Shown piece after piece: positions 3,001 to 63,900 of a DNA stretch of 64,000 nucleotides. Under the pieces are notes generated by a model. That model made no database searches and had not been told where the DNA came from. It was given only the letters and a program-made list of their open reading frames with translations. Location of the stretch: IMG/VR virus record IMGVR_UViG_3300042914_002848. One strand, written 5' to 3'. The stretch is from a virus. Its lineage: Duplodnaviria > Heunggongvirae > Uroviricota > Caudoviricetes. A program made the translations under genes and the position numbers. The first letter of the stretch is position 1. Each line of letters starts with the position of its first letter.

Positions 3001-3482
3001 GATGCGGTATCATACCCTATAATATTAGGTTGAGATACATTTGGTAGTGAACTTGCGGTTATAGTTGTTGTCCATAAAGAACCACTTACTTGAAGGGTGT
3101 TTGTAGGTGTTCCTGTTCCGATGCCTACATTACCACTACCTGATACATAAATTATATTATTAACCGCAGGTGAATCTATTTCAAATAGTCCACTATTACT
3201 TGCGCCTGATATGTGTAGTTTTGCCTGAGGTGTTGCTAATCCCATCCCCGTTCTACTGCCGGAAACAATTATGGCTTCTTGGTTGAATGTTCCCATTTTA
3301 ATGGTATTGTCTGAAAAGACTTCCATAATGGGTATCCCCGAAATATCGTTTACGGAGAATAGTGAACCTGATAACGAATCGGTTATTGAGAACAATTGTC
3401 CTTGCGAACCCTGAACATCAAATATGTTAGAGCCTGAACCTTGTACTATGAGCCCTTTACGGACTTTGAATTCGTTTGCCAT
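1..3482 (-). CDS. Large tail fibre/adhesin (>=1160 aa, runs off the left edge) with GIGT-type fibre repeats and a long run of (S)HAEG beta-roll repeats
   Basis: Hand translation from ATG at 3482 (MANEFKVRKGLIVQGSGS...) stays open to position 3. It has VGIGT..P motifs and >20 HAEG/HTEG repeats (~760-1870). It is absent from the ORF track because it has no stop in the window. Confidence 0.85.
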   Translation of the reverse strand, partial: MANEFKVRKGLIVQGSGSNIFDVQGSQGQLFSITDSLSGSLFSVNDISGIPIMEVFSDNTIKMGTFNQEAIIVSGSRTGMGLATPQAKLHISGASNSGLFEIDSPAVNNIIYVSGSGNVGIGTGTPTNTLQVSGSLWTTTITASSLPNVSQPNIIGYDTASGRFTYFSTSSFVGGSGTTNYITRWSGPNTITTSSIYESGSRIGIGTGVSLPSAKLHIYTNESPYIGLFSRVENTSGTTIVSASAIQTKIDSTVQPSVITNAYNINILNSSGSEGAISNLYGVHINLLNSGSNNWAIFTSGSTRSYFGGNVGLNVTEPTYRLQVKGNSDTESLLKVEGSTNTFIEVSNRNVLVSGSNVHLSGSLYFSASSAGNVSNSVLVRDNTTGQIKLTGSYGGGGGVTLPSNLLSGSGTPTYIALYSGSNFLSSSNIFQNNNSFIGIGTNNPQTLLHVGGRFSAELQSSTQTQVVVFNASTKELTYMSTSSLVAGGGGTPGGINFDIQYNSNSTFGGTGAPQTFFYDYNNGGFGQGVGVSPSGSQSHAHGFYTITENGAFYSHAEGSGSIVKAEGSAGHAEGHDTIVRGIAGHAEGYKTYVGIIDVFPWAKSGSYAHAEGYYTTASGQAAHAEGYFSWAAGDYSHAEGRDTRAYGDYSHAEGYLTIASGSNSHAEGGSTNAGGVGSHAEGAVTTALGEYSHAEGFSTLASGLYSHAEGNDSEANADSSHAEGYATVAHSSAIYAHTEGQSTRTYSVASHTEGYDNEIETNSPYSHAEGVANLIKQDSDGSHAEGYRNVIAGSEYSHAEGEGEGDTNSPEIKNSHYSHTEGSRNTIEDSLYSHAEGDHATIDGGSYSSHAEGSFNTITSATGSHAEGNNNLIQSSNYSHVEGIESEVKGADGAHAEGYFTKAWAKWSHTAGSGSFASPLAIGSYVAGEGTISSGSFQHVIGRYNIPLGGTGSFIIGNGTSAANRSNIMFVDLTGSSVQITGSLLVQGTIAATNISGNISSDKITAPTGNTTLDEITTAQVHSASFDGDVIFTINGPYDSNAYKNWIYVRNKFYENENPGDFEGIGLGIGAPPSYSLDVYGESNFGGPNEYGGPGVSTTSPPRNNNTLFRQSYGFAHGQLNEVYLLNGFAQGEGLIVSSSHQHAIGSYNQQLNQNYSFV

Positions 3483-4931: not shown

Positions 4932-5702
4932 TTATATCATTCTTGATAATGCTTTTACAGACCAGTCGTTGGTGGATGAAGATGCATATAATATAATATT
5001 TGAACCACTTAATGCAACTGAAAGGTTTATTTCTGCGGTATTTCCTATATCGTTTGTTGATACATCGTTCCATTCCACCGAAGTTCCGTTCCAAACCGAA
5101 AATACAGTGCCCGCTCTTGCATTAGTTGATTTATTCAATACATAATCAAAGAATGCTGCCCGGTATGAACCCGTAGATACACTCATCACAGTTCTGATCG
5201 AACCACTATCTATATCGGTATTTTGTCCATAAGTGTATAGTGAGCCTGTTGATATTTGAAAATTACCTTCAACATGCAATGATGCGGATGGGGTAGTTGT
5301 GCCTATGCCTACATTACCGTTATCTAAAACTACTAAACTTGCACTTGCATTGCTGTTTTCAACTCTAAGTGCTGTCGTTGCGGATGTTGCTCCGCTGCCT
5401 CTGACCTGTAAACGCGATGTTGGGGAAGTTGTCCCAATACCTATGTTTCCACTACTTTCATATATTGATGATGTGGTGATTGTTGTACCACCACTCCAAC
5501 GAGTTATGTAATTTGCTGTTCCACTTCCACCAATAAGTGAACCACCACTTACTAACGAAGAGGTTGAAAAATAAGTGAATGTTCCTGATGTGGTGTTATA
5601 ACCTATTACATTAGGTTGAGATACATTTGGTAGTGAACTTGCGGTTATGTTTAGGACATGAACTGCACTACCAGATTGTAATATCTTTTTCCATGAAGGC
5701 AT
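4932..5702 (-). CDS. Tail fibre-associated protein
   Basis: GNIGIGTTSPTSRLQV and GNVGIGTTTPSASLHV repeats; shares a module with the 1..3482 fibre. Confidence 0.7.
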   Translation of the reverse strand: MPSWKKILQSGSAVHVLNITASSLPNVSQPNVIGYNTTSGTFTYFSTSSLVSGGSLIGGSGTANYITRWSGGTTITTSSIYESSGNIGIGTTSPTSRLQVRGSGATSATTALRVENSNASASLVVLDNGNVGIGTTTPSASLHVEGNFQISTGSLYTYGQNTDIDSGSIRTVMSVSTGSYRAAFFDYVLNKSTNARAGTVFSVWNGTSVEWNDVSTNDIGNTAEINLSVALSGSNIILYASSSTNDWSVKALSRMI

Positions 5703-5862: not shown

Positions 5863-8199
5863 TTAAACATATATCCAAATTTCACCATCGGTAGTGTTTA
5901 TATGCATATTACCATATCCAAAAGAAGAACTACCAAAAGTTGGTGCGTTTGAATCGGTTGGAGATACTCCTGATGATGAAACCGTTACCATAAAATCAGT
6001 TGGGGTTACATTCATTGAAGCCGTTCCTACACCCAATGCTACACCCCATCTGTTTGCTAAACCATTCGCTCCACCACTACCACTATTGAATACGAAAGCA
6101 GAGCCACTACCAGCAGCACCTTCAATAATTATACCACCTTCGGATGCGGGTGCTTGAGAACCTGAACTTCTTCCTAAAACGATAAACTTATCTTCTATTG
6201 ATAAGGTAGATGTGTTGATTATTGTTGTTTCTCCATTTACTGTTAGGTCACCACCAACGACAACATTTCCTGTTGTGGTTATAGCAGCAGCCCCAACTGT
6301 TCCCGTAAATGTTGGTGAAGATGAGAATACCAAATTACCTGTTCCAGTTTCATCCGTTACTGCGGCTGCTAAGTTGGCTGATGATGGTATGTTTAAGAAT
6401 GTTGCTACACCCGTACCTAATGTTTGAGTTGCCACCCTATTTGAAGATGTGATAACCAGCATGGTGCTTGAAAGTGCAGTTGCGGGTAATTGGTTAGCTA
6501 ACGTAATGGTTTGTGCGTTTACAGTTACACTATCACCAATTGCATCCCCTAATGTAGTATTACCTGCTATTGCAACAGTTCCATTGGTAGCACCCATATT
6601 AATACTAGCTGCTCCACCAAAGTTAATTGTAGTTGTAGTTCCGTTTAATAAGTTAACGGTAGTGTTAGTTGATGTTATATCACCACCATTTGCTGCTAAA
6701 GTACCGCCAACAGTAGCATTCCCACTCGTTGTAAGTGCTTGACCAAATAACCCAGCAGAAGAACTTATATTAGATGATGCGGTTATATTTACTGCGGTTA
6801 TACCACCACCTACTTGAAGAGTGTTTGTTGGGGTAGCCGTATTTATACCGACTAAAGTAGCACCATTACTTGCGGATATTTTTAAATCGGGTCTATTAGA
6901 ACCACTATAACTAAATAAAATACCTCCACTTAAAACATGAGACCCTGTTGTAAAAGCTTCAAACCTTAAAGCCTGGTTATAAGCGCCTATTTGGGCCCAA
7001 CTTGCGGATAATGGTGTTGTTGTTGCACCTGTGGTATAAGAACCGAATCCAATTTTAGGTCCTTCGGTATCGGAAAATACATAAGTCCCGTATGAGTTTA
7101 CATCGGTACTTACTCTACTTCCAACAACTATACCTTCATTCCCACCCGAACCAGAAACATTTAATCTTCCCGCAAATATTGGTGATGATCCTGTATCTGT
7201 ATATCCAACTATAAATCTAGGATTAGCTTCGGTGGTCATAACAATTGAAGAGGTTGTTATTGTATTATTATCAGACCACATGGTTAAACGTTGGCCTACA
7301 CCAACACCATCTATTGTTGTTGGTAGTGCAATAGATGATGTATTGAATTTAGTGATGTTACCACTAGAATCAATACCAAGAACTTGTACTTGTGCAAGTG
7401 TTGGTAATGCACTCGCGGTTAGATTTGTTGTTGAAATACCAGTCCCGCCTACTTGAAGAGTATTTGTTGGGGTTGTTGTACCTATACCTACATTACCTGT
7501 AGATGTTATTCTCATTCGTTCAGTAACTAACGAACCACTTTGATTTGTTCCAAATGCAAGGAAAGCATCGGGAGTAGCATCTTCAGAAACGGCTTCTATA
7601 AAAGCTTTGGTTGTACCAGAGCCAGTAGTATCCGTATCATTGGAACTAAATATAATTCTTCCAATAGGTTGATCGGTAGTCGAGGTGGTGTCTGCGTCTA
7701 ATAGCTGTATAAAATTAAGAGAATCACTACCCCCAACCGAATTGTAGGTTTTTTGATTACCACCTGCACCACCGTTACTTGATCTTACAATTATAGATGC
7801 AGTAGTACCTACATTAGATGCATTAATATATAAACTGGGATTTGTTATTGTATTTGATGAATTAAGTTGGAGTAGCCCTAATGTTGGAGTTGTTGTACCT
7901 ATGCCTATAGCACCACTACTACTAATAGTCATTGCTACCGAGCCACTTGTTTCAAATTGTAAATTTTGGTTATCGTTAGTACCTAAAACAGCAGCAGCAC
8001 CAAATGAGTTGCCACCTTGTACAAATGCATTTGGGTTTACTATGGAAGATGTATTAAAATATGATAACACACCCGTTGTTGGGTCATAACCAACAATTTG
8101 CCCTGTGGGTACAGCAGTATTATTTGTTAGATTACTAGCAGTTATACCTTGTAAATGGGCCTGCGAACCAGATACTATTACTTTTTTCCATGTTGCCAT
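5863..8199 (-). CDS. Tail fibre protein
   Basis: 778 aa, S/T/G-rich; ERMRITSTGNVGIGTTTP and GDLTVNGETTIINTSTLSIEDKFI fibre motifs. Confidence 0.75.
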   Translation of the reverse strand: MATWKKVIVSGSQAHLQGITASNLTNNTAVPTGQIVGYDPTTGVLSYFNTSSIVNPNAFVQGGNSFGAAAVLGTNDNQNLQFETSGSVAMTISSSGAIGIGTTTPTLGLLQLNSSNTITNPSLYINASNVGTTASIIVRSSNGGAGGNQKTYNSVGGSDSLNFIQLLDADTTSTTDQPIGRIIFSSNDTDTTGSGTTKAFIEAVSEDATPDAFLAFGTNQSGSLVTERMRITSTGNVGIGTTTPTNTLQVGGTGISTTNLTASALPTLAQVQVLGIDSSGNITKFNTSSIALPTTIDGVGVGQRLTMWSDNNTITTSSIVMTTEANPRFIVGYTDTGSSPIFAGRLNVSGSGGNEGIVVGSRVSTDVNSYGTYVFSDTEGPKIGFGSYTTGATTTPLSASWAQIGAYNQALRFEAFTTGSHVLSGGILFSYSGSNRPDLKISASNGATLVGINTATPTNTLQVGGGITAVNITASSNISSSAGLFGQALTTSGNATVGGTLAANGGDITSTNTTVNLLNGTTTTINFGGAASINMGATNGTVAIAGNTTLGDAIGDSVTVNAQTITLANQLPATALSSTMLVITSSNRVATQTLGTGVATFLNIPSSANLAAAVTDETGTGNLVFSSSPTFTGTVGAAAITTTGNVVVGGDLTVNGETTIINTSTLSIEDKFIVLGRSSGSQAPASEGGIIIEGAAGSGSAFVFNSGSGGANGLANRWGVALGVGTASMNVTPTDFMVTVSSSGVSPTDSNAPTFGSSSFGYGNMHINTTDGEIWIYV

Positions 8200-8524: not shown

Positions 8525-9163
8525 TTACATTCCCAAGTAAAAATTTCCATCCGATGAATAATACATCCCACCAGTTATAGGGGTTGGTGGTGTATCAAAT
8601 TTACCCAATACCATAACACCCTCTGAATTGATTTGTGCTGCAACGAAACTTCCCGATTTAATGATAAAGAAATCAGGCATTTCCGATGATATCTTTGTTT
8701 GGATTTGATTTGATTGATTATATATTACTACACTTGATGTGTTTATTCTTACATTTCCCAATTGGATGTATTCATCTCCCCCAAAAACTTCTGCAACTAC
8801 ACCAGTACTATCTACAAAACTCAAACTCCGACTCACATAAACATCACTCCAAGCAGCGGTGGCGCTACCAACGGAGTGTATAGATGTATTTCCCGAAACA
8901 ACATGTGGAATTAAAGAACCTGAAAAGTTTACTGAGCCTGAAAATGAACTTCTACCAATTATTAGGAGATTTCCTAAAAGGTTTACCGAACCAGTTGTGG
9001 TTGTATTGGTAGTAACAGCCGCTTCAATTGATTGACCCGAACTACCTGATTTTTTTAGGAATATTTTACCATCAGCAGTATTTACAGCTAACTCACCCAA
9101 TTCTAATGAGGATGTGGTTGGTACATTTCCACTTCCAAGGTTTCTTCTAAGTAAAATTGACAT
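8525..9163 (-). CDS. Fibre/virion protein with ILLRR...GELAVNTADGKIF N-terminal motif
   Basis: The motif is typical of N-termini of T4-like distal fibre and tropism-determinant proteins. Confidence 0.65.
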   Translation of the reverse strand: MSILLRRNLGSGNVPTTSSLELGELAVNTADGKIFLKKSGSSGQSIEAAVTTNTTTTGSVNLLGNLLIIGRSSFSGSVNFSGSLIPHVVSGNTSIHSVGSATAAWSDVYVSRSLSFVDSTGVVAEVFGGDEYIQLGNVRINTSSVVIYNQSNQIQTKISSEMPDFFIIKSGSFVAAQINSEGVMVLGKFDTPPTPITGGMYYSSDGNFYLGM

Positions 9164-10617
9164 TAGTAAAATCCCCCATCAACATTTAACGCAAAGGATG
9201 CGGTTATAGAATACGAACTACTTATAGGTGTTCCATTTTCCCATACACCTGCATTATATACCAACGCCTGCCCATTTGTGGGGGATGTAATAGTTACATT
9301 TGTTAAATCATCCAAAGTAGTTACAGCGCTTCCACCACCACCAGCTGCACCAACATTATTATAGCCAGCAAGAAAAGCATCTTTTTCTTCAATAAAATAT
9401 GGCGATTCATCATTTAGTGAATTTACAAATTCTACTTTTATATCATTTAAATCATTTTCCTTTTCTGCTTGATACACAAAGGTATGTGTAGACTGTGTAA
9501 AATTTGTTGCAATGTTTGAGTAAATATCTGTTATAGATGAACTAATTCTAGAACTTAAAATTTTTGTACCAACAAATTTATATTGGTTAGTTGTCTCAAA
9601 TGATTTTGGTCTAATATAAACATTTATTTTATCAACATTACCAATTATTGGATTAACATCTTTTAAGGTGATGTGTAAAAGTGATTGTAAAAATTGTGTT
9701 TGCGAACCTGTTGTAGGAACTTCTATTGTAAAACTACCTGTTGAAAATGATGTAAATGTTTTTAATATAGATTCAAGTTTCGTTGTTACCGATGCGGTTA
9801 GTGGATTTGAAACACGCGCTGTTTTACCATCTATCAAAGATTGTACAGAAGCGGTATAATTTATAGGTTTTAATAATCCAGCCGAAGCTTCTGCGGATGT
9901 TATCGTTGGTGATAAAGTTATATTCTGTAAATTAAAATATACTTTATTTCCAGCCAAATTAGAACCAAAGTTATATGATGATGTTGTTGGTAATCTTAAA
10001 AATACATTTTCACCACTAAAATCTGAAGAATATACGATGGTTTCATTTATAGATTCACTAACCAATAATAGCTGACCGTTTTCGTCTGCGAAATTTAAAT
10101 AAGATGAAATAGATTCTGATATTGATATTGTAGGTAATTCATTATTGGAGAATAGAATAGGAGATTCCGACCTATAATTTCTAGTTATTGGTATTTTTCT
10201 TCTCCACCGTATGTTTATAGTATTTTTAAACTCATCAGGTATTTCTTCACCATTTTCAGTTCTATCCGCAATACCACATATTATTACCTCACCAACCCCA
10301 TTTGGGGTATTGTACATATCATTTCTTTGACCATACACCCACACCGAAATATAGCGTGATAAATCGCCCGGCTCATAATCAGGTATTTCATAATAAACCG
10401 ATTGACCGTTTACATCTAAAATTTCAATAAATAGTTCAGAACCTGGCTGTAGTGTTACTCTGCTTGGTTTTACCCTAACGCCATTTTTTCCTCTACCAAA
10501 AAATTTAGGAAATTCGGTTATACCAAAATATGCTTCAGAAGTTAATGAAGTATCTTCAATATAAACTGGTACTGATTCTAAATTTTGTTTAAACCGTCTT
10601 TTAAGTTCTAATGACAT
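9163..10617 (-). CDS. Virion structural protein
   Basis: 484 aa; C-terminal TLDDLTNVTITSPTNGQALVYNAGVWEN fibre-like repeat; coupled to the next gene. Confidence 0.6.
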   Translation of the reverse strand: MSLELKRRFKQNLESVPVYIEDTSLTSEAYFGITEFPKFFGRGKNGVRVKPSRVTLQPGSELFIEILDVNGQSVYYEIPDYEPGDLSRYISVWVYGQRNDMYNTPNGVGEVIICGIADRTENGEEIPDEFKNTINIRWRRKIPITRNYRSESPILFSNNELPTISISESISSYLNFADENGQLLLVSESINETIVYSSDFSGENVFLRLPTTSSYNFGSNLAGNKVYFNLQNITLSPTITSAEASAGLLKPINYTASVQSLIDGKTARVSNPLTASVTTKLESILKTFTSFSTGSFTIEVPTTGSQTQFLQSLLHITLKDVNPIIGNVDKINVYIRPKSFETTNQYKFVGTKILSSRISSSITDIYSNIATNFTQSTHTFVYQAEKENDLNDIKVEFVNSLNDESPYFIEEKDAFLAGYNNVGAAGGGGSAVTTLDDLTNVTITSPTNGQALVYNAGVWENGTPISSSYSITASFALNVDGGFY

Positions 10618-10632
10618 TCATTTCTCCCATAA

Positions 10633-13600
10633 CTATAAGTATTTTATTGAAGAAAAAGAGTTTATTTTATTTATATCAATTATCTGGTCTACCATATCCC
10701 TCGTTTTATCTATGTGGGATATCGTAATAATAAAATCAAATTGAGTTTTTAAATAATCAAATAGCAAATACAAAGAATTAAAATTATCAGTATCCAGTGA
10801 ACCAAACCCCTCATCAATAGCGATAAAGTTTGGACGGGGTAGGTTGGATATACTAATTAATGCGGTTCTGATTGCGATTGAACTCACAAACTTTTCCATA
10901 CCACTTGTCAACTCTAATGGCCAATACTTATCATCTCCATAGCAAATATATGAGTTGATGTTTTTACCATCGGTATCTAATATGATTTGGAAATCCACTA
11001 TAGGTTGAAGAATATTGTTAATTTCAATCTCCAACGTTGGTAATATTTCTGCTATCAATCCATATGGAATACCATCCCGCTTAACTGCTGATAAGTAGTG
11101 TTCGTATCCATTATACTTTAATTCCATTTGATTTAATTTTTTTACAGATTCATTTACAGACTCAATTGTATTTTTTTGAACACGTAACTCACCCAACAAA
11201 TCTATTAAATCGGTTGTAACCTTATTTAATTCGGATTGAGTTTCCAATCTTTTTTGTTTTAGTGAATTAATTTCTTCATTAAGTTTGATGTTGAATTCAA
11301 CCGATTTTTCTTGCTTTTTGGCTTTTTCAATGTTCGCAGATATTTTTTCGTATTGAGATTCGTATTGGTTATAATCGGATTTAGAATCATTTAATTCAGA
11401 TAAAAGATTGTAGTATTTGCGGTTTACCTCTTGCTCTTTTTCTTTGACCTGATTTACCTTATCCAACTCCGTTTTTACATCACACCCCTTTTGTGTTTGA
11501 ACTTTTTCTGATAGTTCGGTTTCTAATACGGATATCTTTTTAGTTAGTGTTACTATTTTAGTTTCCAATTCCAAACTTTGCTTTGCAAATGGAGTGTTTT
11601 TATTTTTAACACAATGTTCACAATTATCATCGTATGTAAAAGAACCAATACCATCCAAATGCTTTTTGGTATGTGATAGTTCAATCTGATACTTTGATAT
11701 GGTTTGTTTTATTAATGCGATATCCCGCTCTAAAACACGCCATTCATTATCTTTTGCTTTTAATTCATCTAAATCATACTCTTTATAGAACTCGCCAATT
11801 CTTTCAAGCTTTTCCTCTAATGGTTTTACTTGGGATTGTAACTCCCTTATATTGGATGATATTGTTCCTATAGAATTCCTACAATCTTTTAATTCGGCAT
11901 TTAATAACTCTAAGTTCAGATTACCATCCACCACAATTAACTTTGCAGACTTATCCTCAATTTGGTTGTGTATATTGTTAAGATTAGTTTCAAAATTTAT
12001 TTTTTTGTTTTCCAAATCAGAAATAGAACCTGTTATAGATTGAGATACTAATTCGGCCTTAGCCAACTTTGTTGGAAAATCTTGCCCCTTATAATCTTTC
12101 AGTAAGGTTGATAACTCCTTTATTTCTTCACTTGCTACTGAATACAATTGCTCAAACACATCCATATCCAAAAATTGAGCAAGTAACTCTTTTCGTTCTT
12201 TTTGTGATTTATCAATAAAACCACTATTGTTAAATTGAGTTGAGAGAGCAGTCAATATGAAATCATCATATGTTCCTACATACTGCCTAATAACTGAATT
12301 TGTATCTCTTCTTTCATCACCATTCAAACTTTCAATATCACCCATATCATTGAATGTGTAAAATTGAGTATCAACTTTTACAGTTCCCTTTTTGGTGGAT
12401 TTATTTGCGGTTCTCTCAATTACATAATCCCTGCCATTTAGTTCAAAGATAAACTTACAATAAAAATTGTTTTTAGAATAATTCATCACATCAACTGCTT
12501 TTGATGTTCGGGAGCACTTATCAAAAATACAAAAGGATAAAGCATCCCACAAAGAAGATTTACCACTTGCGTTGGGAGCAAATACACCATACGCCCCTTT
12601 CATATTTTGAAAGTTTATATAGTTATCTTCCCCATAAGAAAACATATTTGAGAATTGAAATTCTTTTGGAATCCAAACCGAACTCCGAATTGCATGAGGA
12701 TTTACAATCTTTGAGTTTATATCAGCGTTTATACCTTTGACAACTTCTAAAGCTTCTGAATCAATACCAAACTTTTGGGTCAAATAATCTTCCAATAGTT
12801 TATTTTGAAATCCAACATCCCTTACATTATGTAGAGTTATATGTTCTCGTTTTCCAACTTCGTTTGTAGATAAAACTTTCTGAATACTTAACTCTTCTAT
12901 TTCATATTTCTTTTTTAAAGAAGATACAATTTTATTCAACTGTGATGTGGTTGTATCTTTAACCCTTAATCTTAATCTTGGCTTTGGGCAAATGTAATTA
13001 TTTGATACGATTTTACCATCTTCAATATCAATAGTTCCATACCCATACGCATTCTCAATATGAACGAATGTGGAGGACTTTGTTGGTACATCCCATACCA
13101 ATATCCCATGCTCAGGATAAATTGATTCTGAGTGGTTCTGTGTAATCAGGGAGCCTGGGTACTTTATAGTATCCACACCTGATACTGAATTATTGGGAAC
13201 ATGGATATCTCCCAAAAGAACAATATCATATCCTTTAAAAGAATCCACCGTAACTTTTTTGTTATCAATCTTAAATCCATGCTCAGTTTGTATTCCATCA
13301 ACGGGTCCGTGATAAAGAGCGATTTTAAAATCCCCATCAACGCCCGAACTATTTGTAAATCCATCCGATGAATCGAATACTGATTTGTGTGCGAATACGA
13401 TGCCACCAAACTCAAAGGTTGTAGTGTTTTTGTAGTAATATAAGTTTGGGTGATTTAAAGCATCAACAATTGGTGATAACGCATCTAACCGAGAAGGGTT
13501 ATTTAGATTTGCATCGTGGTTGCCAGGAATTAAAATGGTGGGCATGATATCCGATAAATTTCTCAAAAAGTTTTGAGTCATATGTACCACCTCCGGCGTC

Positions 13601-53170: not shown

Positions 53171-53569
53171 TTAAAGTTTAATTTCAAAACGATTACGCAT
53201 TTGTTCAATCTTTTCTTCGGGTACTCCATGCTCATTGACACCATTATGGCGATTTTCAACAATGATAGAAAATACTTGATATCCATATTTAGCAGCCAAT
53301 TGATAGTATGCTTCCATCTCCCACTCTTGGGTGAAAGTGTTGGAAACCACAATCCGATTTACATTGATTTGTGGGTCATTACATCTCATCCATATTTGTG
53401 TTTGTGATTGGCAGTAATTATGTGCTAATTTAAGTTTAGAAGCATCAAAATTATATTTACCATCCACCATAAAGTATTGGTCGGCTTCAATATTAATACC
53501 ACCAAGCGCTTTAGCAAGGGTTGATTTACCCGAACCTGGCAGGCCACGAACTAAAAATAACTTTTTCAT
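53171..53569 (-). CDS. P-loop kinase (polynucleotide kinase-like, AAA_33)
   Basis: RGLPGSGKST, EADQYF, VVSNTFT, HGVPEEKIEQMRNRF. Confidence 0.88.
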   Translation of the reverse strand: MKKLFLVRGLPGSGKSTLAKALGGINIEADQYFMVDGKYNFDASKLKLAHNYCQSQTQIWMRCNDPQINVNRIVVSNTFTQEWEMEAYYQLAAKYGYQVFSIIVENRHNGVNEHGVPEEKIEQMRNRFEIKL

Positions 53570-53762
53570 TTTGTTAAACCTCTTTTTTTAAAGTAACCCA
53601 AAGTATTAGATATATCCAAAATGCGTATGGGAATATAAATAAAAATCCTATTCTCCAAAGGATTGGTGGTATTCCACTCCATTTACCAAGTCCATCACAT
53701 ACCCCACCAATATAACCACCATTACCTAAAAATAACTTATCCATTATTCTATATGCTTTCTA

Positions 53763-54221
53763 TTAGAATTCGCCATAATTTACCTGAAAGCATGCAATTC
53801 CCCTATCCCGCCACATCTTTACTACCTTATCCCTATCATCAAAAACGCAGAGGATTTTATTACCATCATTAAGTAATTCATCCAACCACCCGGATTTCAG
53901 TACATCATCGGGAGTGTAATCTTTTTGAGGTCGCATATGAAGAAAATCGTAATCTACTCCATTGGATTTCAACCAAGCTTCAGTTTCGGTTTTGGATATT
54001 GAATCCCTACCCGAAAAAATACCTACAGTATATCCGGCCGATTTCATTGCGGAAAAGGCCGAGATAACAGGCAGATTCGGTTTATCCAACTGAATGTTTT
54101 GTGGGTCAAAAAATACACCCCAATTTAATTTACCATTCTGCTTTGTTGCTTTTTCTCGCCTAGCATCAATTAAGGCAAGAGTACCATCCAAATCAAATAT
54201 AACTATAGTTTTCATATACAA
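53763..54221 (-). CDS. HAD-family phosphatase (T4 PseT 3'-phosphatase domain-like)
   Basis: IFDLDGTLA, FSGR, LHMRP..DYTPD...K, VFDDRDKVVKMWR..G. Confidence 0.88.
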   Translation of the reverse strand: MYMKTIVIFDLDGTLALIDARREKATKQNGKLNWGVFFDPQNIQLDKPNLPVISAFSAMKSAGYTVGIFSGRDSISKTETEAWLKSNGVDYDFLHMRPQKDYTPDDVLKSGWLDELLNDGNKILCVFDDRDKVVKMWRDRGIACFQVNYGEF

Positions 54222-54250
54222 ATATACAAATTAAATTTTAAATATCCAAA

Positions 54251-55294
54251 TTAAAGTTTAGAAAATTTAGGTTGGATTATTTTCCATATCAACCTCGAAT
54301 AATCTTTATAATCATACATCTTAAATAAGATTGCCGGGTACTTATGCTTTTTAGCAAGTTCAGCGAACCTGGCACGATTTTCAAATTCATCGGATTTACT
54401 AAGAATCCTAAATATCCAAATATATTCATCCTCTATTTTATTGTATTTATCCACCAACTTATTTGAGTATTGGCGAATCTTATCATAAAATTCATCGGGA
54501 ACATCGGTTAGGGTTGATAGAATATCACCACCATTAGAAAGAACTTCCCATACTGCGGTAGTAGAAAGGTGGGTCATTATTCGGTGAAGTCTTAAATATT
54601 CTTCACCTTTTATTTTAACCCTATCACCATTTGAAAAACGAACTACGAATCCTTCCTGATTGTTTTTTACCATACCTTTTAATAGGTTGTAGTTAGATAT
54701 AGTATCGTATTTCTTTACTAAATCCCAACCTTTAAAAGTAGCTGGTTCACCCCAATAAATTTCAAAAGTAGATGAATCATCTCGCAAAATTTCTTCACCG
54801 GTATCGGTTTTAATAGCAGCAAGTAAAACAAGTCGGCTCACTCCACCATAATCAACAACTATCCTATTTTCGGGATAGATTATCTCAAACAGGTAGGTGT
54901 AACCATCTACTAAAATTTCAGAAAAATTATACCTATCACCCCAATTAGCCATCCATATAGCTTGTTCGGATGTGAACGAACCACGAGTAGCATAAACAGC
55001 CCGGCCTTCCCACATAAAAACGATTCCTAAAGAACCATCCATTTTTTCAAAAACCTCAAACTTTTGGGTTGGTGTATGCTTTTTCTCTTCAATATTAAAA
55101 AACTTTTGGAATGGACGAGCAACTATTTGACCACTACCATCAGTAACAAGACCTCTACATTGTAAAGTAATCTCATCCCACAAACCTTCATATTGAACCT
55201 TTTCGGTATAGTTCCATATAGTAAGTGGTAAGGTTGGGTGAATCTGCGAATATAACAATCCCCTCTCCTTATAATCATTTAATATATCTAACAT
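54251..55294 (-). CDS. RNA ligase 1 (T4 RnlA-like)
   Basis: CRGLV, RPFQKFFN, EKMDGSLG, ATRGSF, FEII.PENRIVV.Y, EGFVV, VKIK. Confidence 0.92.
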   Translation of the reverse strand: MLDILNDYKERGLLYSQIHPTLPLTIWNYTEKVQYEGLWDEITLQCRGLVTDGSGQIVARPFQKFFNIEEKKHTPTQKFEVFEKMDGSLGIVFMWEGRAVYATRGSFTSEQAIWMANWGDRYNFSEILVDGYTYLFEIIYPENRIVVDYGGVSRLVLLAAIKTDTGEEILRDDSSTFEIYWGEPATFKGWDLVKKYDTISNYNLLKGMVKNNQEGFVVRFSNGDRVKIKGEEYLRLHRIMTHLSTTAVWEVLSNGGDILSTLTDVPDEFYDKIRQYSNKLVDKYNKIEDEYIWIFRILSKSDEFENRARFAELAKKHKYPAILFKMYDYKDYSRLIWKIIQPKFSKL

Positions 55295-55310
55295 ACTAAA
55301 TTTTATCTTA

Positions 55311-55565
55311 CTAATTATAGAATAATCCTTCAGATAACTTAATGCTTAATGTATGGTCCATATAATCCCACGCGTGCATTCCTGCTATTTCCCTTAGTTT
55401 ACTATCTCTAGCTAACCACATAACACTATCATATTGTAATTCCCCAATATAATTGGAGGATTTCATTTGTTCCAAAATTGCGGAAACCGATAAGGGATAC
55501 TTATCAGCCTGTCCTTCAATTACTGCTTTAGCTTCCTGCTTCAATCGCTCAAATAGATTTTTCAT
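55311..55565 (-). CDS. Hypothetical protein
   Basis: 84-aa ORF behind an early promoter. Confidence 0.6.
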   Translation of the reverse strand: MKNLFERLKQEAKAVIEGQADKYPLSVSAILEQMKSSNYIGELQYDSVMWLARDSKLREIAGMHAWDYMDHTLSIKLSEGLFYN

Positions 55566-55582
55566 AATTTTTATTTTTTAAT

Positions 55583-55648
55583 TTACAATGTAAAGATATT
55601 ACAGAAAGAGCAATTTTCCAAGCTTTCAATATTAAATTATCGTTAAGT
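55583..55648 (-). promoter_or_regulatory. Early promoter module
   Basis: Same TTGG...TATCTTTA repeat. Confidence 0.65.
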
Positions 55649-55847
55649 TTTTCTCAATAATGAGACGAACCCGTTCCCTATCAACGGAATCAAATTCAAT
55701 GTCGCTTAATGGCATGCTTTCCAAATACTCATTACAGGCGGCAATAATCCCCTTTTTTGTAGTAAGTGGGTAAATACCATTACGCAACTCATAAAAAGTT
55801 ATACAATATTTGTAAAACTCTTTGATTAAAACTGAATATTTTTTCAT
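55632..55847 (-). CDS. Hypothetical protein
   Basis: 71-aa ORF behind an early promoter. Confidence 0.6.
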   Translation of the reverse strand: MKKYSVLIKEFYKYCITFYELRNGIYPLTTKKGIIAACNEYLESMPLSDIEFDSVDRERVRLIIEKNLTII

Positions 55848-55858
55848 ATCTTTTTTTG

Positions 55859-55956
55859 TTACATAGTAAAGATACTACTAAAACCCCATATTTCCAAGCT
55901 TTTTTCCCAAAAGTTATCCACATTTTAGGGTTAAAAAGTGTCCAATATATTGGACA
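55859..55956 (-). promoter_or_regulatory. Early promoter module with DnaA box and palindrome
   Basis: TTATCCACA 55914; TGTCCAATATATTGGACA 55939. Confidence 0.7.
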
Positions 55957-56043
55957 GTTCTTATTGACCTTGGGTCTGTGAATCTACAATCCCAAAAACC
56001 TCACTTATAACCGAAACAATTCGATATGGGATTATTTTATTTA

Positions 56044-56439
56044 TTATCTACTCAAAAATGATAGTTGAACTTCTTTTAAAAGTTTCCTGCCCAATTTTTT
56101 ATCAGTACGCAAGGTAGATTTGTTTTTTACACTCAATAATGTATTAGCCCTCACCAACTTTTCTATTTCAGTTTCGTTGTAACCCATACTTTTCCACGTC
56201 TCAATTAATTTACTTTCGATACCCCTAAGTTGTTCACTAATCTCATTTTCCATATGAGATTGGTTTATCTTAAAAAAGATATTACCACGCCTTATTTTAT
56301 CCAAAAAAGAATAACCCATACGGGACATGCAAAAGTGTTGGTAAATCTGCCTACGTTGGTTATAATCCATACCTACCATCTTTTTTTCCATAATTTCTAC
56401 CGTTTCTTTGAAACGGTACCTTTTATTATTTGCACACAT
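56044..56439 (-). CDS. Hypothetical protein
   Basis: 131-aa ORF. Confidence 0.6.
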   Translation of the reverse strand: MCANNKRYRFKETVEIMEKKMVGMDYNQRRQIYQHFCMSRMGYSFLDKIRRGNIFFKINQSHMENEISEQLRGIESKLIETWKSMGYNETEIEKLVRANTLLSVKNKSTLRTDKKLGRKLLKEVQLSFLSR

Positions 56440-56547
56440 AGTTTTATTGTTTAATATTTTTTATTTAGTTAGTTATTACAAATATACGAAGTAAATTTTA
56501 ATTTTCCAAATCTCAATAGAAAAATTTACTACTCATATTTGAGGACG

Positions 56548-56709
56548 TTAGTGTTCAGTTTGTTTTCCGCCACATAATAAACATAATGATATTGCGTTAT
56601 TACTACTTATATAACCAGTTCCTTTACAATTAGGACAAACCGAAACACTAACAACAGATATATTCAATTGTTTTCGTCTTTTAAATAAGTTTTTAATAAA
56701 TTTTATCAT
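56548..56709 (-). CDS. Small CxxC...CxxC zinc-finger protein (53 aa), cassette gene
   Basis: MIKFIKNLFKRRKQLNISVVSVSVCPNCKGTGY...CLLCGGKQTEH. Confidence 0.6.
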   Translation of the reverse strand: MIKFIKNLFKRRKQLNISVVSVSVCPNCKGTGYISSNNAISLCLLCGGKQTEH

Positions 56710-56774
56710 TTGTTTTTCATTTTTAAGTTTGTATTCAACTGAATATATCTGAAATATGTTAGTGATAATAAAAA

Positions 56775-57020
56775 TTAAATCAATCCTTGTTTCTTTAACA
56801 TATTTACGATTGCCTCTGCTGCTGCCTTAACTGAATCAGGGTCTTTTTCCATATCACCATCTTTCATAGAATAAGGCACATATCGTAAATATACTTCATC
56901 ATCAATTATATCTTTAATCATATCAATAAGTTCTTGCTCATTTTTACTATCACTAACATCAGATATATTCAAGTTTTCTTGATGTTCGTTGAAACTTTGT
57001 ATGTGTCCTTTACCTTTCAT
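56775..57020 (-). CDS. Hypothetical cassette protein
   Basis: 81 aa, starts inside attC loop (…LNISDVSDS crosses the site). Confidence 0.6.
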   Translation of the reverse strand: MKGKGHIQSFNEHQENLNISDVSDSKNEQELIDMIKDIIDDEVYLRYVPYSMKDGDMEKDPDSVKAAAEAIVNMLKKQGLI

Positions 57021-57091
57021 CTTCGTATTTTATTTTAGTGTATATATTAAAAAAGAAAACCTAAATATATCTGTGGTCGTTATACACAATA

Positions 57092-57307
57092 TTACTTGCT
57101 ATTATTTATGTCGTCTAGGATTTTGTGAAGTCGCTCAACTTCTTCCTTTGTAAAAACAAGCATCCTAAGATTTGTCTTTTCACCATTTACATAAGTATCA
57201 CAAAATCCATTTTCATCTCGTTCACCGCAAGTAATACTATGTATAACAGCAGGTTTAGTTAATTGCTTATCTCTGCTTCTAAATAAGTTTTTAATCCAAT
57301 TAATCAT
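57092..57307 (-). CDS. Hypothetical cassette protein
   Basis: 71 aa, starts inside attC loop (…LTKPAVIHS crosses the site). Confidence 0.6.
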   Translation of the reverse strand: MINWIKNLFRSRDKQLTKPAVIHSITCGERDENGFCDTYVNGEKTNLRMLVFTKEEVERLHKILDDINNSK

Positions 57308-57481
57308 TTGTATTTCAATTTAAGTTTTTTACTAATTTTACGCAACTAACCAAACCTGCGTAACGTTAGAAACAATTATGTCTAACTATTTCTAACAGCA
57401 AATATAAGTAATAAATTTTGATTTTCCGAATCTCCAAAGAAAAATTTACCACTCATATTTGATGGCGTTATGTGTAATAAA

Positions 57482-57658
57482 TTAAAACTTTAACAGCAGT
57501 GCCATTATAGTTAAACTTATTACGCCAATTAATATCATTTTTTTGGCGTGTTTAGCACCAATCATTTTACTTTCAACAAAATCATCTGTTGTCCATAATA
57601 CAAACCCTGCTGATAAAAATAAACACCCAAAAACTAAAAAGAAATTTTGTATAAACAT
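57482..57658 (-). CDS. Small two-TM protein (58 aa)
   Basis: Hand translation MFIQNFFLVFGCLFLSAGFVLW... Confidence 0.5.
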   Translation of the reverse strand: MFIQNFFLVFGCLFLSAGFVLWTTDDFVESKMIGAKHAKKMILIGVISLTIMALLLKF

Positions 57659-57668
57659 ATCGTAAGTT

Positions 57669-57965
57669 TTAATTTAATCGTTCAAAGATATGACCTACAA
57701 ATTCACCCCTCTGGTACTGATAGGTCCCAATGTATTTTCTTTCAATTCCCATATCCTCGTGAATAGTGTGTCCAGTTCCATAAAGCTCAAAGAATCGGTC
57801 CTCCATCTCAGCTTGTGGATTAACTAATGCCCAAATTGTCGGATGGTTATTTTTTTCGTCAGTCTGGATGGTTAAAATCTCTGCGCCCTTTGGCATTTGC
57901 AAAGTAAACTTTTCCTTGAACCCTTCTATAAGGGTTGAAAATTTCCAAATTGTTTTCATATTCAT
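57669..57965 (-). CDS. Hypothetical phage protein
   Basis: MKTIWKF...MPKGAEILTIQ...IWALVNP...GTGH...YIGT...HIFE. Confidence 0.7.
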   Translation of the reverse strand: MNMKTIWKFSTLIEGFKEKFTLQMPKGAEILTIQTDEKNNHPTIWALVNPQAEMEDRFFELYGTGHTIHEDMGIERKYIGTYQYQRGEFVGHIFERLN

Positions 57966-57973
57966 TTTTTTAA

Positions 57974-58050
57974 CTTACATAGTAAAGATACAACAGAAAA
58001 CCCATATTTCCAAGCTTTCAATATTAAATTATCGTTAAGTTTAGGTTAAA
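57974..58050 (-). promoter_or_regulatory. Early promoter module
   Basis: Same repeat. Confidence 0.65.
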
Positions 58051-58051
58051 G

Positions 58052-58549
58052 TTATTCACAAACAAGGTGATTTTTTACCCGTTTTTTAACCACACTACCT
58101 ATCAGTATTTCACCCCGGTCCAACACCTGGTCTAACTCAATCGTTGTCGCATAATAGGATGTAGAACCTGAAGATACCCAGTCACCCTTCTTTAAATTCA
58201 CAAAGAAAACAAACCATTTCATATCCTCCCCACTATCATCATACGAAACTAATAAATAATCCGATTCCCTTTTGGAATATTCTCCCCCCCTCCATACCCC
58301 AACCGTCTTAGCTGTTTTAATCTCCAACGGAACATCCCCTACCCATAAATCAGGTTCACCATCCGTAAAAGGAGAACGGATATTTGGAACGATATCCGAA
58401 AATGTTGCCTCTAAAATATTTGATATGATTTCAGACCGTAATTTCGTAGATAAATGATTGTAATGAACTACGGACTTGAATACCTTTAACCGATTGTTCG
58501 CTTCGGTAAGTACGGCGGGCAGGTGAACCCTAATGTAATCTATTATCAT
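58052..58549 (-). CDS. PD-(D/E)xK restriction-like nuclease
   Basis: ISNILE...GEPDLWVGDVPLEIKT...YLLV. Confidence 0.6.
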   Translation of the reverse strand: MIIDYIRVHLPAVLTEANNRLKVFKSVVHYNHLSTKLRSEIISNILEATFSDIVPNIRSPFTDGEPDLWVGDVPLEIKTAKTVGVWRGGEYSKRESDYLLVSYDDSGEDMKWFVFFVNLKKGDWVSSGSTSYYATTIELDQVLDRGEILIGSVVKKRVKNHLVCE

Positions 58550-58585
58550 ATTGTTTTGTGTATTAATAGAACTATTAGTAAAAGG

Positions 58586-58629
58586 GCTGAGCTAAAAGGA
58601 AAGGAGCTGAGCTAAAAGGAAAAGAGCTG
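58586..58629. repeat. 20-bp tandem repeat (GCTGAGCTAAAAGGAAA(A/G)GA x2)
   Basis: Read directly. Confidence 0.8.
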
Positions 58630-58786
58630 TATTGTATATTATACAAGCTTTTAGGGGAGTATTTCCACAGCCAAAAAAATGACCTCTGCATGAAAACAGG
58701 TACCCCAGCCTATAACACATTAAATTTTTTTTGGGTTTACATTGAAATGCTACCCCCCCCCTGTCATAACACAGCGCTTCCTGCTC

Positions 58787-59098
58787 TTACCGCACTCGCT
58801 TGGATAGCGATTTCCAATCGAATGGTACACCATGAATGGATTCTTCAAAAAACCGTCTTGCTTTTTCTGCTTTTTCTTCATCAGAAAAATGAGTTACAGC
58901 GCTTAGTTTGCTATCTACCACCATCAGTTCAGCAATGGATACTATCTCACCCCCATATTCTTGTTGGTGTTTTTTCTTAAAGTAGTTGATTTTATTAATC
59001 GCTTTAATCTGCTTTAATGGAGTGGATGCTTTAATCAGCTCACCTGTCCAGTATTGGATTTTAGGGATGTACCCTTCCTTATACTTAGTATTTTTCAT
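58787..59098 (-). CDS. Hypothetical protein
   Basis: 103-aa ORF. Confidence 0.6.
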   Translation of the reverse strand: MKNTKYKEGYIPKIQYWTGELIKASTPLKQIKAINKINYFKKKHQQEYGGEIVSIAELMVVDSKLSAVTHFSDEEKAEKARRFFEESIHGVPFDWKSLSKRVR

Positions 59099-59111
59099 TT
59101 CTGATATGTTT

Positions 59112-59354
59112 TTAAATTCCTTTCCACTTTTTTCCTACCATCGTATTAGCGAATCGTTTGTGTTCTTCTACACACCATTGGGTTGATGTGATAGGTGGTT
59201 CGGTAACAGATTTAATGTTAGGGCTGTGTTCTAATCCTAATTTTTTTGGATTTGAGTTTATAGGGTTGTATTTAAAGTCCATTGGTCTTACTATAGTATT
59301 ACTACTACTATATACTCGTTTTCTATTGAATAGGGATTGGATTAGCTTTTTCAT
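59112..59354 (-). CDS. Hypothetical protein
   Basis: 80-aa ORF. Confidence 0.55.
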   Translation of the reverse strand: MKKLIQSLFNRKRVYSSSNTIVRPMDFKYNPINSNPKKLGLEHSPNIKSVTEPPITSTQWCVEEHKRFANTMVGKKWKGI

Positions 59355-59372
59355 TGCTGTTTTTATTTTTGT

Positions 59373-60320
59373 TTAATTCACCTTTTTAGTTGGGATTAGT
59401 ATCATAGCTGCGTCATCTTTGACTAATTCCCAATTATAGTCATTATGAAGGTAGAATGAACGATCACTATTTTCTGTATCACAACCCCTAACTTGAATAA
59501 AATTCTTACATAACCCAAGCGAAACAGCTACATTGTTTGAAACAATGCTATCACATCCATATTGGCGTGTATGCTTTGAGAAATCAAAGTACTTGCTTTC
59601 TTCCGGAAAGCATTCAGAGTGGTTTGCTTTGATTATTGATTTCCATTTATTACAAGCCAATTCATACAACCCACGAATTGCTTCATCGGTAGTTGTCCCA
59701 TCCAACTTAAAGTGTTTGGTGAGATAGTCTTTTTGTGGTGTGGTGGCCGCCTCGTAATATTCATTGAGTAATGTACGATGGATTTGAATTGTTTTTACTT
59801 CGGGGTTTGACATAGGTTTTGTATTTGTAATTTGACGGAATTGTTCTAAGGTAATTTCTTGATAATTTTTGTAATTAGGGTCGTCCCTAACGGCGGCGGC
59901 ATCATCGCTGTAATAACAACTATTATCTGATTGATGCTCTGAGAGCAGCGTATGACCGACCGAGAAGTGGTATCTTAGAAGATATTGAGTAGCGTTTTTT
60001 AGCCTCCAAGCATTGAGTTCTTCGCGGTTTTCTTCGGTGGCTTGGATGTACCATTTTGTGGGGAGTGTGTTCATGTTTTTGGGGTTAGTGATTTGGCGGA
60101 ATTGTTCGAGTGTGATTGGTTGGTGATTAGGGTACTGTTCAATGCAGTCTTCTATGCAGTCTGAAAAGTAGTAACTGCCGTCTGGATGCGAGGACATTAG
60201 GGTAAATCCAATCGTGAATATCTTCCAAGATTTGTCCGCATTTGCCCTCCACCAAGGGTAGAGTTCTGCAAAGTTCTGTTCGGTGGCTTGGATGCACCAA
60301 TGTTCGGGATGTGTGTTCAT
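59373..60320 (-). CDS. Hypothetical protein with two tandem ~85-aa repeats
   Basis: MNT.P..W.IQATE.N..EL..W...ITLEQFRQITN twice. Confidence 0.7.
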   Translation of the reverse strand: MNTHPEHWCIQATEQNFAELYPWWRANADKSWKIFTIGFTLMSSHPDGSYYFSDCIEDCIEQYPNHQPITLEQFRQITNPKNMNTLPTKWYIQATEENREELNAWRLKNATQYLLRYHFSVGHTLLSEHQSDNSCYYSDDAAAVRDDPNYKNYQEITLEQFRQITNTKPMSNPEVKTIQIHRTLLNEYYEAATTPQKDYLTKHFKLDGTTTDEAIRGLYELACNKWKSIIKANHSECFPEESKYFDFSKHTRQYGCDSIVSNNVAVSLGLCKNFIQVRGCDTENSDRSFYLHNDYNWELVKDDAAMILIPTKKVN

Positions 60321-63484: not shown

Positions 63485-63900
63485 ACTCTATCTCTTGTAC
63501 TATATAGTACTAGTAGTAGTATATAGGAGATAGAACCCCCCACCCCTTTTTAGCGCCGGAGTTCTTATAGTATATACTATATAGTAGTAGTATATAGTAG
63601 TAGCGCTGGAGTTGATTGGTTGATAATCATCGGATGTGGAGTTCTCTCTCTCTTGTACTATATAGTACTAGTAGTAGTATATAGACACACACACACACAT
63701 ACACATACTAAGCGCTCTCTTAAAGTTCTCTTAACCCTTCTCTTAACCCCTCTCTTATCTATATACTATATAGTAGTAGTATATAGTAGTAGTAGCGCTG
63801 AGAAATAAACCAAAAATAAATTCACCATTGTTATAACACCCCACAACTATATAATAACATTGTATAGTATATACTATATAGTAGTAGTAGTATATAGAGA
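63485..63900. repeat. Low-complexity palindromic repeats (TACTATATAGTA, TAG runs, CA/CT runs)
   Basis: Several copies of (G)TACTATATAGTA(C) followed by (TAG)n; non-coding. Confidence 0.8.

Follow-up and report, generated by a model that had tools for sequence, protein, structure and literature searches.

Organisation of the hairpin array

The window (the whole stretch of 64,000 nucleotides that was analysed) is part of a 105-kb IMG/VR virus record, the completeness of which was judged to be 58%. By reading both strands over 56000-58000 and scanning for repeats, we have found an array at 56479-57469 composed of five hairpin sites (A-E) with four small cassettes between them. All the genes around it lie on the minus strand; one of them encodes an RNA ligase, and many are small ORFs that match no family. 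The features of the array are:

56479-56553, minus strand: site A, arms 56479-56499 and 56521-56541, GTTAGTG core 56547-56553, without a TAAC core on its left (plus-strand) side
56548-56758: cassette 1, 211 bp, ORF53 (56548-56709, minus strand) and site B
56650-56760, minus strand: site B, 16-bp stem and 65-nt loop with the ATG (56709) and leader of ORF53
56759-57079: cassette 2, 321 bp, ORF81 (56775-57020, minus strand) and site C
56955-57081, minus strand: site C, 21-bp stem (19 Watson-Crick and 2 G:T pairs) and 72-nt loop with the ATG (57020) and leader of ORF81
57080-57365: cassette 3, 286 bp, ORF71 (57092-57307, minus strand) and site D
57245-57367, minus strand: site D, 21-bp stem and 69-nt loop with the ATG (57307) and leader of ORF71
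57366-57467: cassette 4, 102 bp, no ORF, a 14-bp mini-hairpin (57365-57396) and site E
57394-57469, minus strand: site E, 21-bp stem (18 Watson-Crick and 3 G:T pairs), 21-nt loop and no ORF

On the plus strand the sites follow the plan TAAC-N1-2-stem-loop-stem-N5-GTTA. The minus strand reads ATTnnnnnTAAC, a spacer of 5-6 nt, a stem arm of 16-21 bp, the loop, the opposite arm, a spacer of 1-2 nt and GTTAnnnnnAGT, and every non-Watson-Crick pair in the stems of the window is G:T on this strand. Only A and E resemble each other. The arm sequences differ among B-D, and a promoter-like box is restricted to A and E, where TATATTTG is found in an arm of site A and in the 3' arm of site E (both on the minus strand). 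In site E it matches the -7 promoter motif of Bacteroidota and points to ORF71, ORF81 and ORF53; a promoter role is inferred from this motif only. Site A forms the boundary of the array and could be either attI-like or a truncated attC.

In ORF53, ORF81 and ORF71, the ATG and the 20-27 codons that open the reading frame fall within sites B, C and D, respectively, and the GTT core is always an in-frame Val codon. Pfam and PHROGs searches with the cassette proteins gave a single result, a weak zinc-ribbon hint in ORF53. Outside the array, ORF80 (59112-59354, minus strand) starts with a leader of the ORF53/ORF71 kind, MKKLIQSLFNRKR, and has no recognisable site.

A first-pass annotation of this DNA, which had read the locus as an integron-like array, listed four complete hairpins and a degenerate fifth site ending at 56553. 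All of them were recovered, the former as AAC..GTT spans at 56650-56760, 56955-57081, 57245-57367 and 57394-57469 with stems of 16-21 bp, and the latter at 56479-56553 with one core absent. The cassette lengths given there (211, 321, 286 and 102 bp) were reproduced with a G|TT crossover at 56547, 56758, 57079, 57365 and 57467. It also claimed that the bases after each GTT are complementary to the TAAC side of the next site rather than to that of their own site, and this offset pairing proved to be longer than described: 9 nt for GTTAGTGTT/AACACTAAC, 20 nt at 95% between 56756-56775 and 56940-56959 (18-20 nt depending on how the pairing is counted), 21 nt at 90% between 57079-57099 and 57227-57247, and 14 nt for GTTAGAAATAGTTA/TAATTGTTTCTAAC.

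A different repeated element of ~95 nt was observed in intergenic regions, at 57950-58042, 55839-55902 and 55558-55653 of the window and at 594-689, 6790-6885, 9047-9130, 10313-10413, 10764-10862 and 11496-11592 of the phage locus L008. It precedes many genes both in this phage and in its relative G002, with 75-87% identity, and probably represents a promoter module of the phage that is distinct from the hairpin sites.

Cassette boundaries and the site family in phages

In an all-against-all comparison, homology between unrelated phages begins and ends at the AAC/GTT cores, with the breakpoints within 1-2 nt of the AAC core. The backbone of G002 is 91.5% identical to the window and this similarity stops at 56552, in site A, beyond which the arrays differ: at the same locus, G002 contains a 3.8-kb array with other cassettes. 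The comparison of cassette order in related phages, which the annotation had proposed as a check, gave different cassettes at the locus between 91%-identical flanks and breakpoints at the predicted crossover. Cassette 2 (the ORF81 unit) is present in G002 at another position, with 94.6% identity against only 71% for the flanking gene. Its homology ends at 56758, and the 5' arm of the G002 copy is degraded.

Cassette 3 (the ORF71 unit) is 88-91% identical to sequences in two other phage loci, L045 and L046, from about 57377 to 57078, ending at the predicted boundaries. The homologous stretch lies between the AAC preceding site D and the AAC preceding site C, and past it a different site is found in each phage. 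Both stems show compensatory G-C to A-T changes in these copies; GGT replaces GTT in L046, and 12 nt of the outer stem are deleted in L045. The module of site C is found with 81-94% identity in many contigs of unrelated phages, where the ORF body attached to it varies, and hairpin modules may occur twice within one array. The N-terminal leader of ORF53 recurs in a homologue from a 642-kb uncultured phage (LR756502.1, locus L027, 6001-6230), together with the GTT junction and a 9-bp end pairing but without the upstream hairpin arm; its leader DNA is 87% identical to that of the window. Methyltransferases recur as cassettes in phage arrays, fused in frame behind a leader. Phages with this site family range from 39 to 266 kb.

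In L008, a second conserved element of ~75 nt (TCGYTTATTTGTGAAGTTTRCAYCCACTTATA...) follows the TAAC core at 1776-1850, 2105-2170, 3045-3125 and 5177-5245. It is at the place expected for a hairpin site, and no obvious stem was seen in it. In another relative, G004 (L011, 4220-4460), a homologue of the region around 58703 of the window is joined directly to an ORF131 homologue. This genome lacks ORF165, ORF98, ORF58 and the whole array, so the locus is hyperplastic beyond the cassette traffic.

The family was sampled from ~40 IMG/VR loci reached via flanking and cassette proteins, which gave roughly a hundred sites with the same architecture on the gene strand and widely different stems. The architecture of attC (inverse AAC/GTT cores, inner stem and variable loop) is met, with invariant cores, stems of 16-26 bp and loops from 9 to ~190 nt. 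When 21 short-loop sites were aligned, a consensus hairpin was obtained with compensatory changes in 17 of its 25 pairs and three positions fixed as G:U-type wobbles. Paired cells reach 97.5% in this alignment (69.7% in shuffles, 37-49% in slid registers), and double changes number 139, against 36.6 in shuffles. A strand-symmetric detector applied to the phage sites counted 133 G:T and 16 A:C mismatches on the gene strand of the inner stems. In the outer stems the mismatches were 73 G:T and 2 A:C. The strong covariation of the stems and the concentration of G:T mismatches on one strand indicate that a single DNA strand folds. The flank of GTT pairs with the neighbouring site over a median of 14 bp, compared to 5 bp for the own flank or random partners. 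Among the sites with long loops, 30 of 45 have an ATG in the loop in frame with GTT and open for at least 25 codons, while the other two frames give 2 each.

We used a covariance model (R1) trained on 21 sites from other phages, none of them from the window. It matched four of the sites, all on the minus strand: site D (57236-57376, E 9e-8), site E (57385-57478, E 2e-7), site C (56946-57090, E 1.5e-6) and site B (56641-56769, E 0.017). Beyond these, R1 had no match on either strand of the 64-kb window; a strand-symmetric scan of the 105-kb record gave no other long-armed sites of the form seen in the array, and Rfam families searched over 54000-60000 gave nothing relevant at E up to 10. Folding of the bottom strands had been proposed beforehand as a check. 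The minus strand as single-stranded DNA has a more stable fold than the plus strand at all five sites of the window, and the strand asymmetry is strong, but the classical extrahelical bases were not seen, and an asymmetric spacer and fixed G:T wobbles stand in their place. The weight of the evidence is comparative, since folding energies of single sequences are only modestly better than those of shuffles (z from -1.1 to -3.3).

Bacterial arrays and the linked recombinase

In bacteria, the family of Flavobacterium cheonanense was sampled with 151 species, of which 94 (~60%) have arrays of R1 matches. An exact-pattern scan of bacterial genomes returned about as many matches as expected by chance; the minority of true sites among them led to the bacterial arrays. 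Flavobacterium cheonanense itself has nine sites within 21 kb, and further arrays are found in a Flavobacteriaceae isolate, Polaribacter glomeratus and Nitritalea. Two chromosomal arrays lie beside an Xer/IntI-like recombinase:

G006 contig 3, 253324-276762 (L202, L203): array of Flavobacterium cheonanense
G007:C6:620-10848 (L204): second chromosomal array

Their cargo includes a C-5 DNA methylase and a protein of the 2'-5' RNA ligase family. In the arrays of the four genomes named above the order is each time ORF then site, and the rule of pairing with the neighbouring site holds. The folding (modelled) strand is antisense to the cassette ORFs in these arrays, as is the bottom strand in canonical integrons.

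An Xer/IntI-like tyrosine recombinase is found near the site clusters in 9 of 9 bacterial genomes inspected, within about 1-17 kb. It adjoins the array in the first four, where it is the best match to the integron-integrase model. In the other five, the top homologue is on the contig of the site cluster, with the closest of the listed sites ~4-17 kb away; its orientation is consistent and its identity is 40-51%, far above XerC/D. Over the 151 species, sites are present in 94 and the recombinase in 105 (82 with both, 12 with sites only, 23 with the recombinase only and 34 with neither; odds ratio 10, p 3e-9, without correction for phylogeny).

The array-linked recombinase passes the NF040815 model ("tyrosine recombinase/integron integrase") with 226.5 bits. 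Against TIGR02249, linked recombinases align in two stretches that leave model positions 177-237 unmatched, with 204.5 and 160 bits where the cut-off is 265. Their alignment to XerA, which is also the best PDB match, is continuous, and the IntI-specific insertion is absent; we therefore call the enzyme IntI-like and not a canonical IntI.

A search of IMG/VR with the Flavobacterium recombinase protein retrieved one 6.8-kb contig only. The phage-encoded copies were found by a PF00589 search of the array-bearing records, three of which have a recombinase homologue of 269 aa, 46% identical, directly after the arrays:

L208:4234-5043 (G163): phage recombinase
L209, about 2735-3166, minus strand: phage recombinase
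L210, about 4997-5443, minus strand, with L211 288-5808: phage recombinase

One of these records, a genome of 266 kb, is complete; it has terminal repeats and 25 sites or more. The final cassette of G163 terminates in ..CACTAAC ~30 nt before the start codon of the recombinase, which we interpret as an attI-like G|TT junction beside a divergent recombinase gene, as in canonical integrons. The three records look like complete integron-like platforms on phages.

No tyrosine recombinase (PF00589) was found in the 105-kb record, which is 58% complete, nor any IS200/IS605-type Y1 transposase or serine recombinase/resolvase. No recombinase was found in five related records or in the complete genome of Polaribacter phage P12002L. 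As to the IntI-like recombinase that the annotation had inferred elsewhere in the phage or in the host, such an enzyme is near arrays of the same family in Flavobacteriaceae and in three phage records, but none was found in this incomplete record and the linked enzyme does not have the IntI-specific insertion.

Interpretation, alternatives and known systems

We consider it likely that the window contains an integron-type cassette array without an integrase of its own. It is CALIN-like since no recombinase was found in the 105-kb record, and it meets the criterion of at least two clustered attC with no integrase nearby, having four R1 matches and site A within 1 kb. This supports the integron-like reading of the first-pass annotation, although recombination itself remains to be shown. 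The observations it starts from are the anatomy of the sites, the strand asymmetry, the covariation, the cassette boundaries and the genetic linkage of the site family to a recombinase. In the mechanism that we propose, each site would fold as single-stranded DNA on the minus strand of the window, the recombinogenic "bottom" strand, into a hairpin whose AAC/GTT core is conserved. An Xer/IntI-like tyrosine recombinase from the host or from a related or co-infecting phage is the likely enzyme; an outside source is assumed because the search of this record gave none. Cleavage and rejoining by this enzyme would take place at G|TT (plus strand), with excision and insertion of units of one small gene and one site, while site A, beside a conserved backbone gene, may be the fixed insertion point. 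The chemistry, the position of the crossover to the nucleotide, the pairing of enzyme and site, and activity in this phage are all inferred, since no recombination event was observed directly. In the phage layout the genes are on the folding strand, with the start codon and ~20-27 leader codons in the loop of their own site and GTT as Val, so each cassette brings its own translation start.

The family is best filed under Flavobacteriaceae, a few other Bacteroidota, and their phages. It looks like a gene-capture platform common to Flavobacteriaceae and phages, since the same site arrays stand beside the recombinase in both. A broader proposal, which to us could go either way, is that Flavobacteriaceae and their phages share a distinct integron-like class, with long-R-box hairpins and a short Xer-like recombinase that lacks the IntI insertion, and with complete versions in jumbo phages (recombinase and at least 25 cassettes). 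In this class the site loop would serve as a portable translation start and N-terminal leader, and phages would run or borrow their own gene capture for small accessory genes and methyltransferases.

The array could instead be an inert relic, assembled in an ancestor or captured from a host and no longer recombining, with the hairpins kept by inertia or for expression. The lack of a recombinase in this record and its five relatives fits such a history, as does the visible decay of site A (one core absent), of the ORF81 arm in G002, of the core in L046 (GGT) and of the outer stem in L045 (12-nt deletion). We find it unlikely, however, because four sites keep near-perfect stems of 16-21 bp interrupted by G:T wobbles only, close homologues differ by compensatory changes, and cassette content differs between relatives with 91%-identical flanks. 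The record is, moreover, only 58% complete, and the enzyme is common in host genomes. Homologous recombination between conserved regulatory modules, without a dedicated recombinase, would resemble the PeSL-mediated shuffling documented in T4-like phages (PMC2839356, PMC4122927). The likeness extends to small unknown ORFs in a hyperplastic region of a large phage, bounds formed by stem-loops, some of them with promoter-like boxes (here in sites E and A), and modules common to several phages; whole hairpin modules are indeed 81-94% identical across unrelated phages and sometimes present twice per array. PeSLs work by sequence homology, whereas here the stems covary freely, the cores have 4 nt, the folding is strand-specific and a recombinase is linked. 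Neighbouring sites share only the 4-nt cores and short box motifs, which leaves little homology to recombine, and the array of the window does not meet the PeSL criterion of a conserved promoter-plus-terminator repeat between ORFs. This explanation seems improbable to us, as it accounts neither for the strand-specific G:T pattern and conserved wobble positions nor for the cassette-specific complementary ends and the tight linkage to a recombinase gene.

It might also be argued that the hairpins are mRNA structures involved in stability, processing or control of translation, the offset pairing being second stems around the ORF bodies. In favour of this, the strand that folds in phages is also the sense strand, the loops with the start codons are open, and the outer stems show compensatory changes. 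In the bacterial arrays, however, the same asymmetry is seen on the strand antisense to the cassette ORFs, which speaks against an mRNA role and points to single-stranded DNA, not mRNA, as the target of selection. Considering also the presence of the site family near a recombinase gene and the absence of Rfam matches, we regard this explanation as very improbable. An added role at the RNA level cannot be excluded in the case of phages, since the folding strand is also the mRNA strand.

Other readings were discarded. For an invertible-segment (shufflon-like) organisation of the inverted repeats around the ORF bodies, the reverse frames close after 6-24 codons. For translational bypass and intron-like elements, there are no matching take-off/landing codons or conserved cores.

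In the usual view, integrons are above all devices by which bacteria capture genes, and IntI is what defines them. As canonical examples we take class 1 and the Vibrio superintegron, with 2a3v as the structure of IntI4. The arrays described here share with canonical integrons the folded single-strand sites, the complementarity of the first cassette bases to the own site, the ORF-then-site order in the bacterial relatives and the homogeneity of sites across unrelated cassettes. In the recombinase-bearing phages, the array is also divergent from the recombinase gene, with a G|TT junction near its start. They differ in that the linked recombinase is co-oriented with the cassettes in most bacterial arrays inspected and lacks the IntI-specific insertion, and in that the one tested site of the family was not recombined by IntI1. 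Since this recombinase would fail the usual test for IntI, standard tools would call the arrays orphan clusters or miss them. According to a review, Bacteroidota are among the phyla with detected integrons (PMC8618304). In the literature searched, we found neither this site family nor its insertion-less recombinase described.

Qi et al. 2023 (PMC9892861) reported CALINs from virulent phages, one of which is Polaribacter phage P12002L, with cassettes for methyltransferases. These CALINs resemble the array of the window in their small cassettes, imperfect AAC/GTT hairpins and absence of a phage integrase, and DNA methyltransferases are cargo in both. On the other hand, the family described here has a long R box of ~12-21 bp (against 7) and an asymmetric spacer of 4-6 nt (against 1-2 nt), conserved G:T wobbles rather than classical extrahelical bases, and ORFs that are on the folding strand and start in the loop of the site. 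P12002L_attC1 (NC_028924, 30005-30058, minus strand) is a member of the window's family. In the IntI1 assay it was the only one of six phage sites that was not recombined (PMC9892861), which is consistent with a different cognate enzyme; yet it is the only experimental datum, and it is negative. Two sites were called in P12002L in that study, while R1 gives seven matches, all co-oriented with the genes, and with a looser hairpin scan the number may be about a dozen.

Should the recombinase act on these sites, phages of these bacteria would trade accessory genes with hosts and with each other by site-specific cassette traffic, including methyltransferases able to counter restriction, and folded-site recombination would not depend on the IntI insertion. 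The layout with the start codon and leader within the site is also relevant to the formation and expression of cassettes, a question that is still open. With Polaribacter phage P12002L and its host, a cultured system is available.

Two other regions of the window caught our attention. At 53171-55294 (minus strand) there is an RNA-repair-like cluster composed of an RNA ligase of 347 aa, whose matches in other phages are annotated as RNA ligase, and of two ORFs judged by motif only, one P-loop kinase-like and the other HAD-phosphatase-like. At 63498-63881, dense inverted and direct repeats of TACTATATAGTACTA / TAGTAGTATATAGTA are found with a spacing of 56-105 nt.
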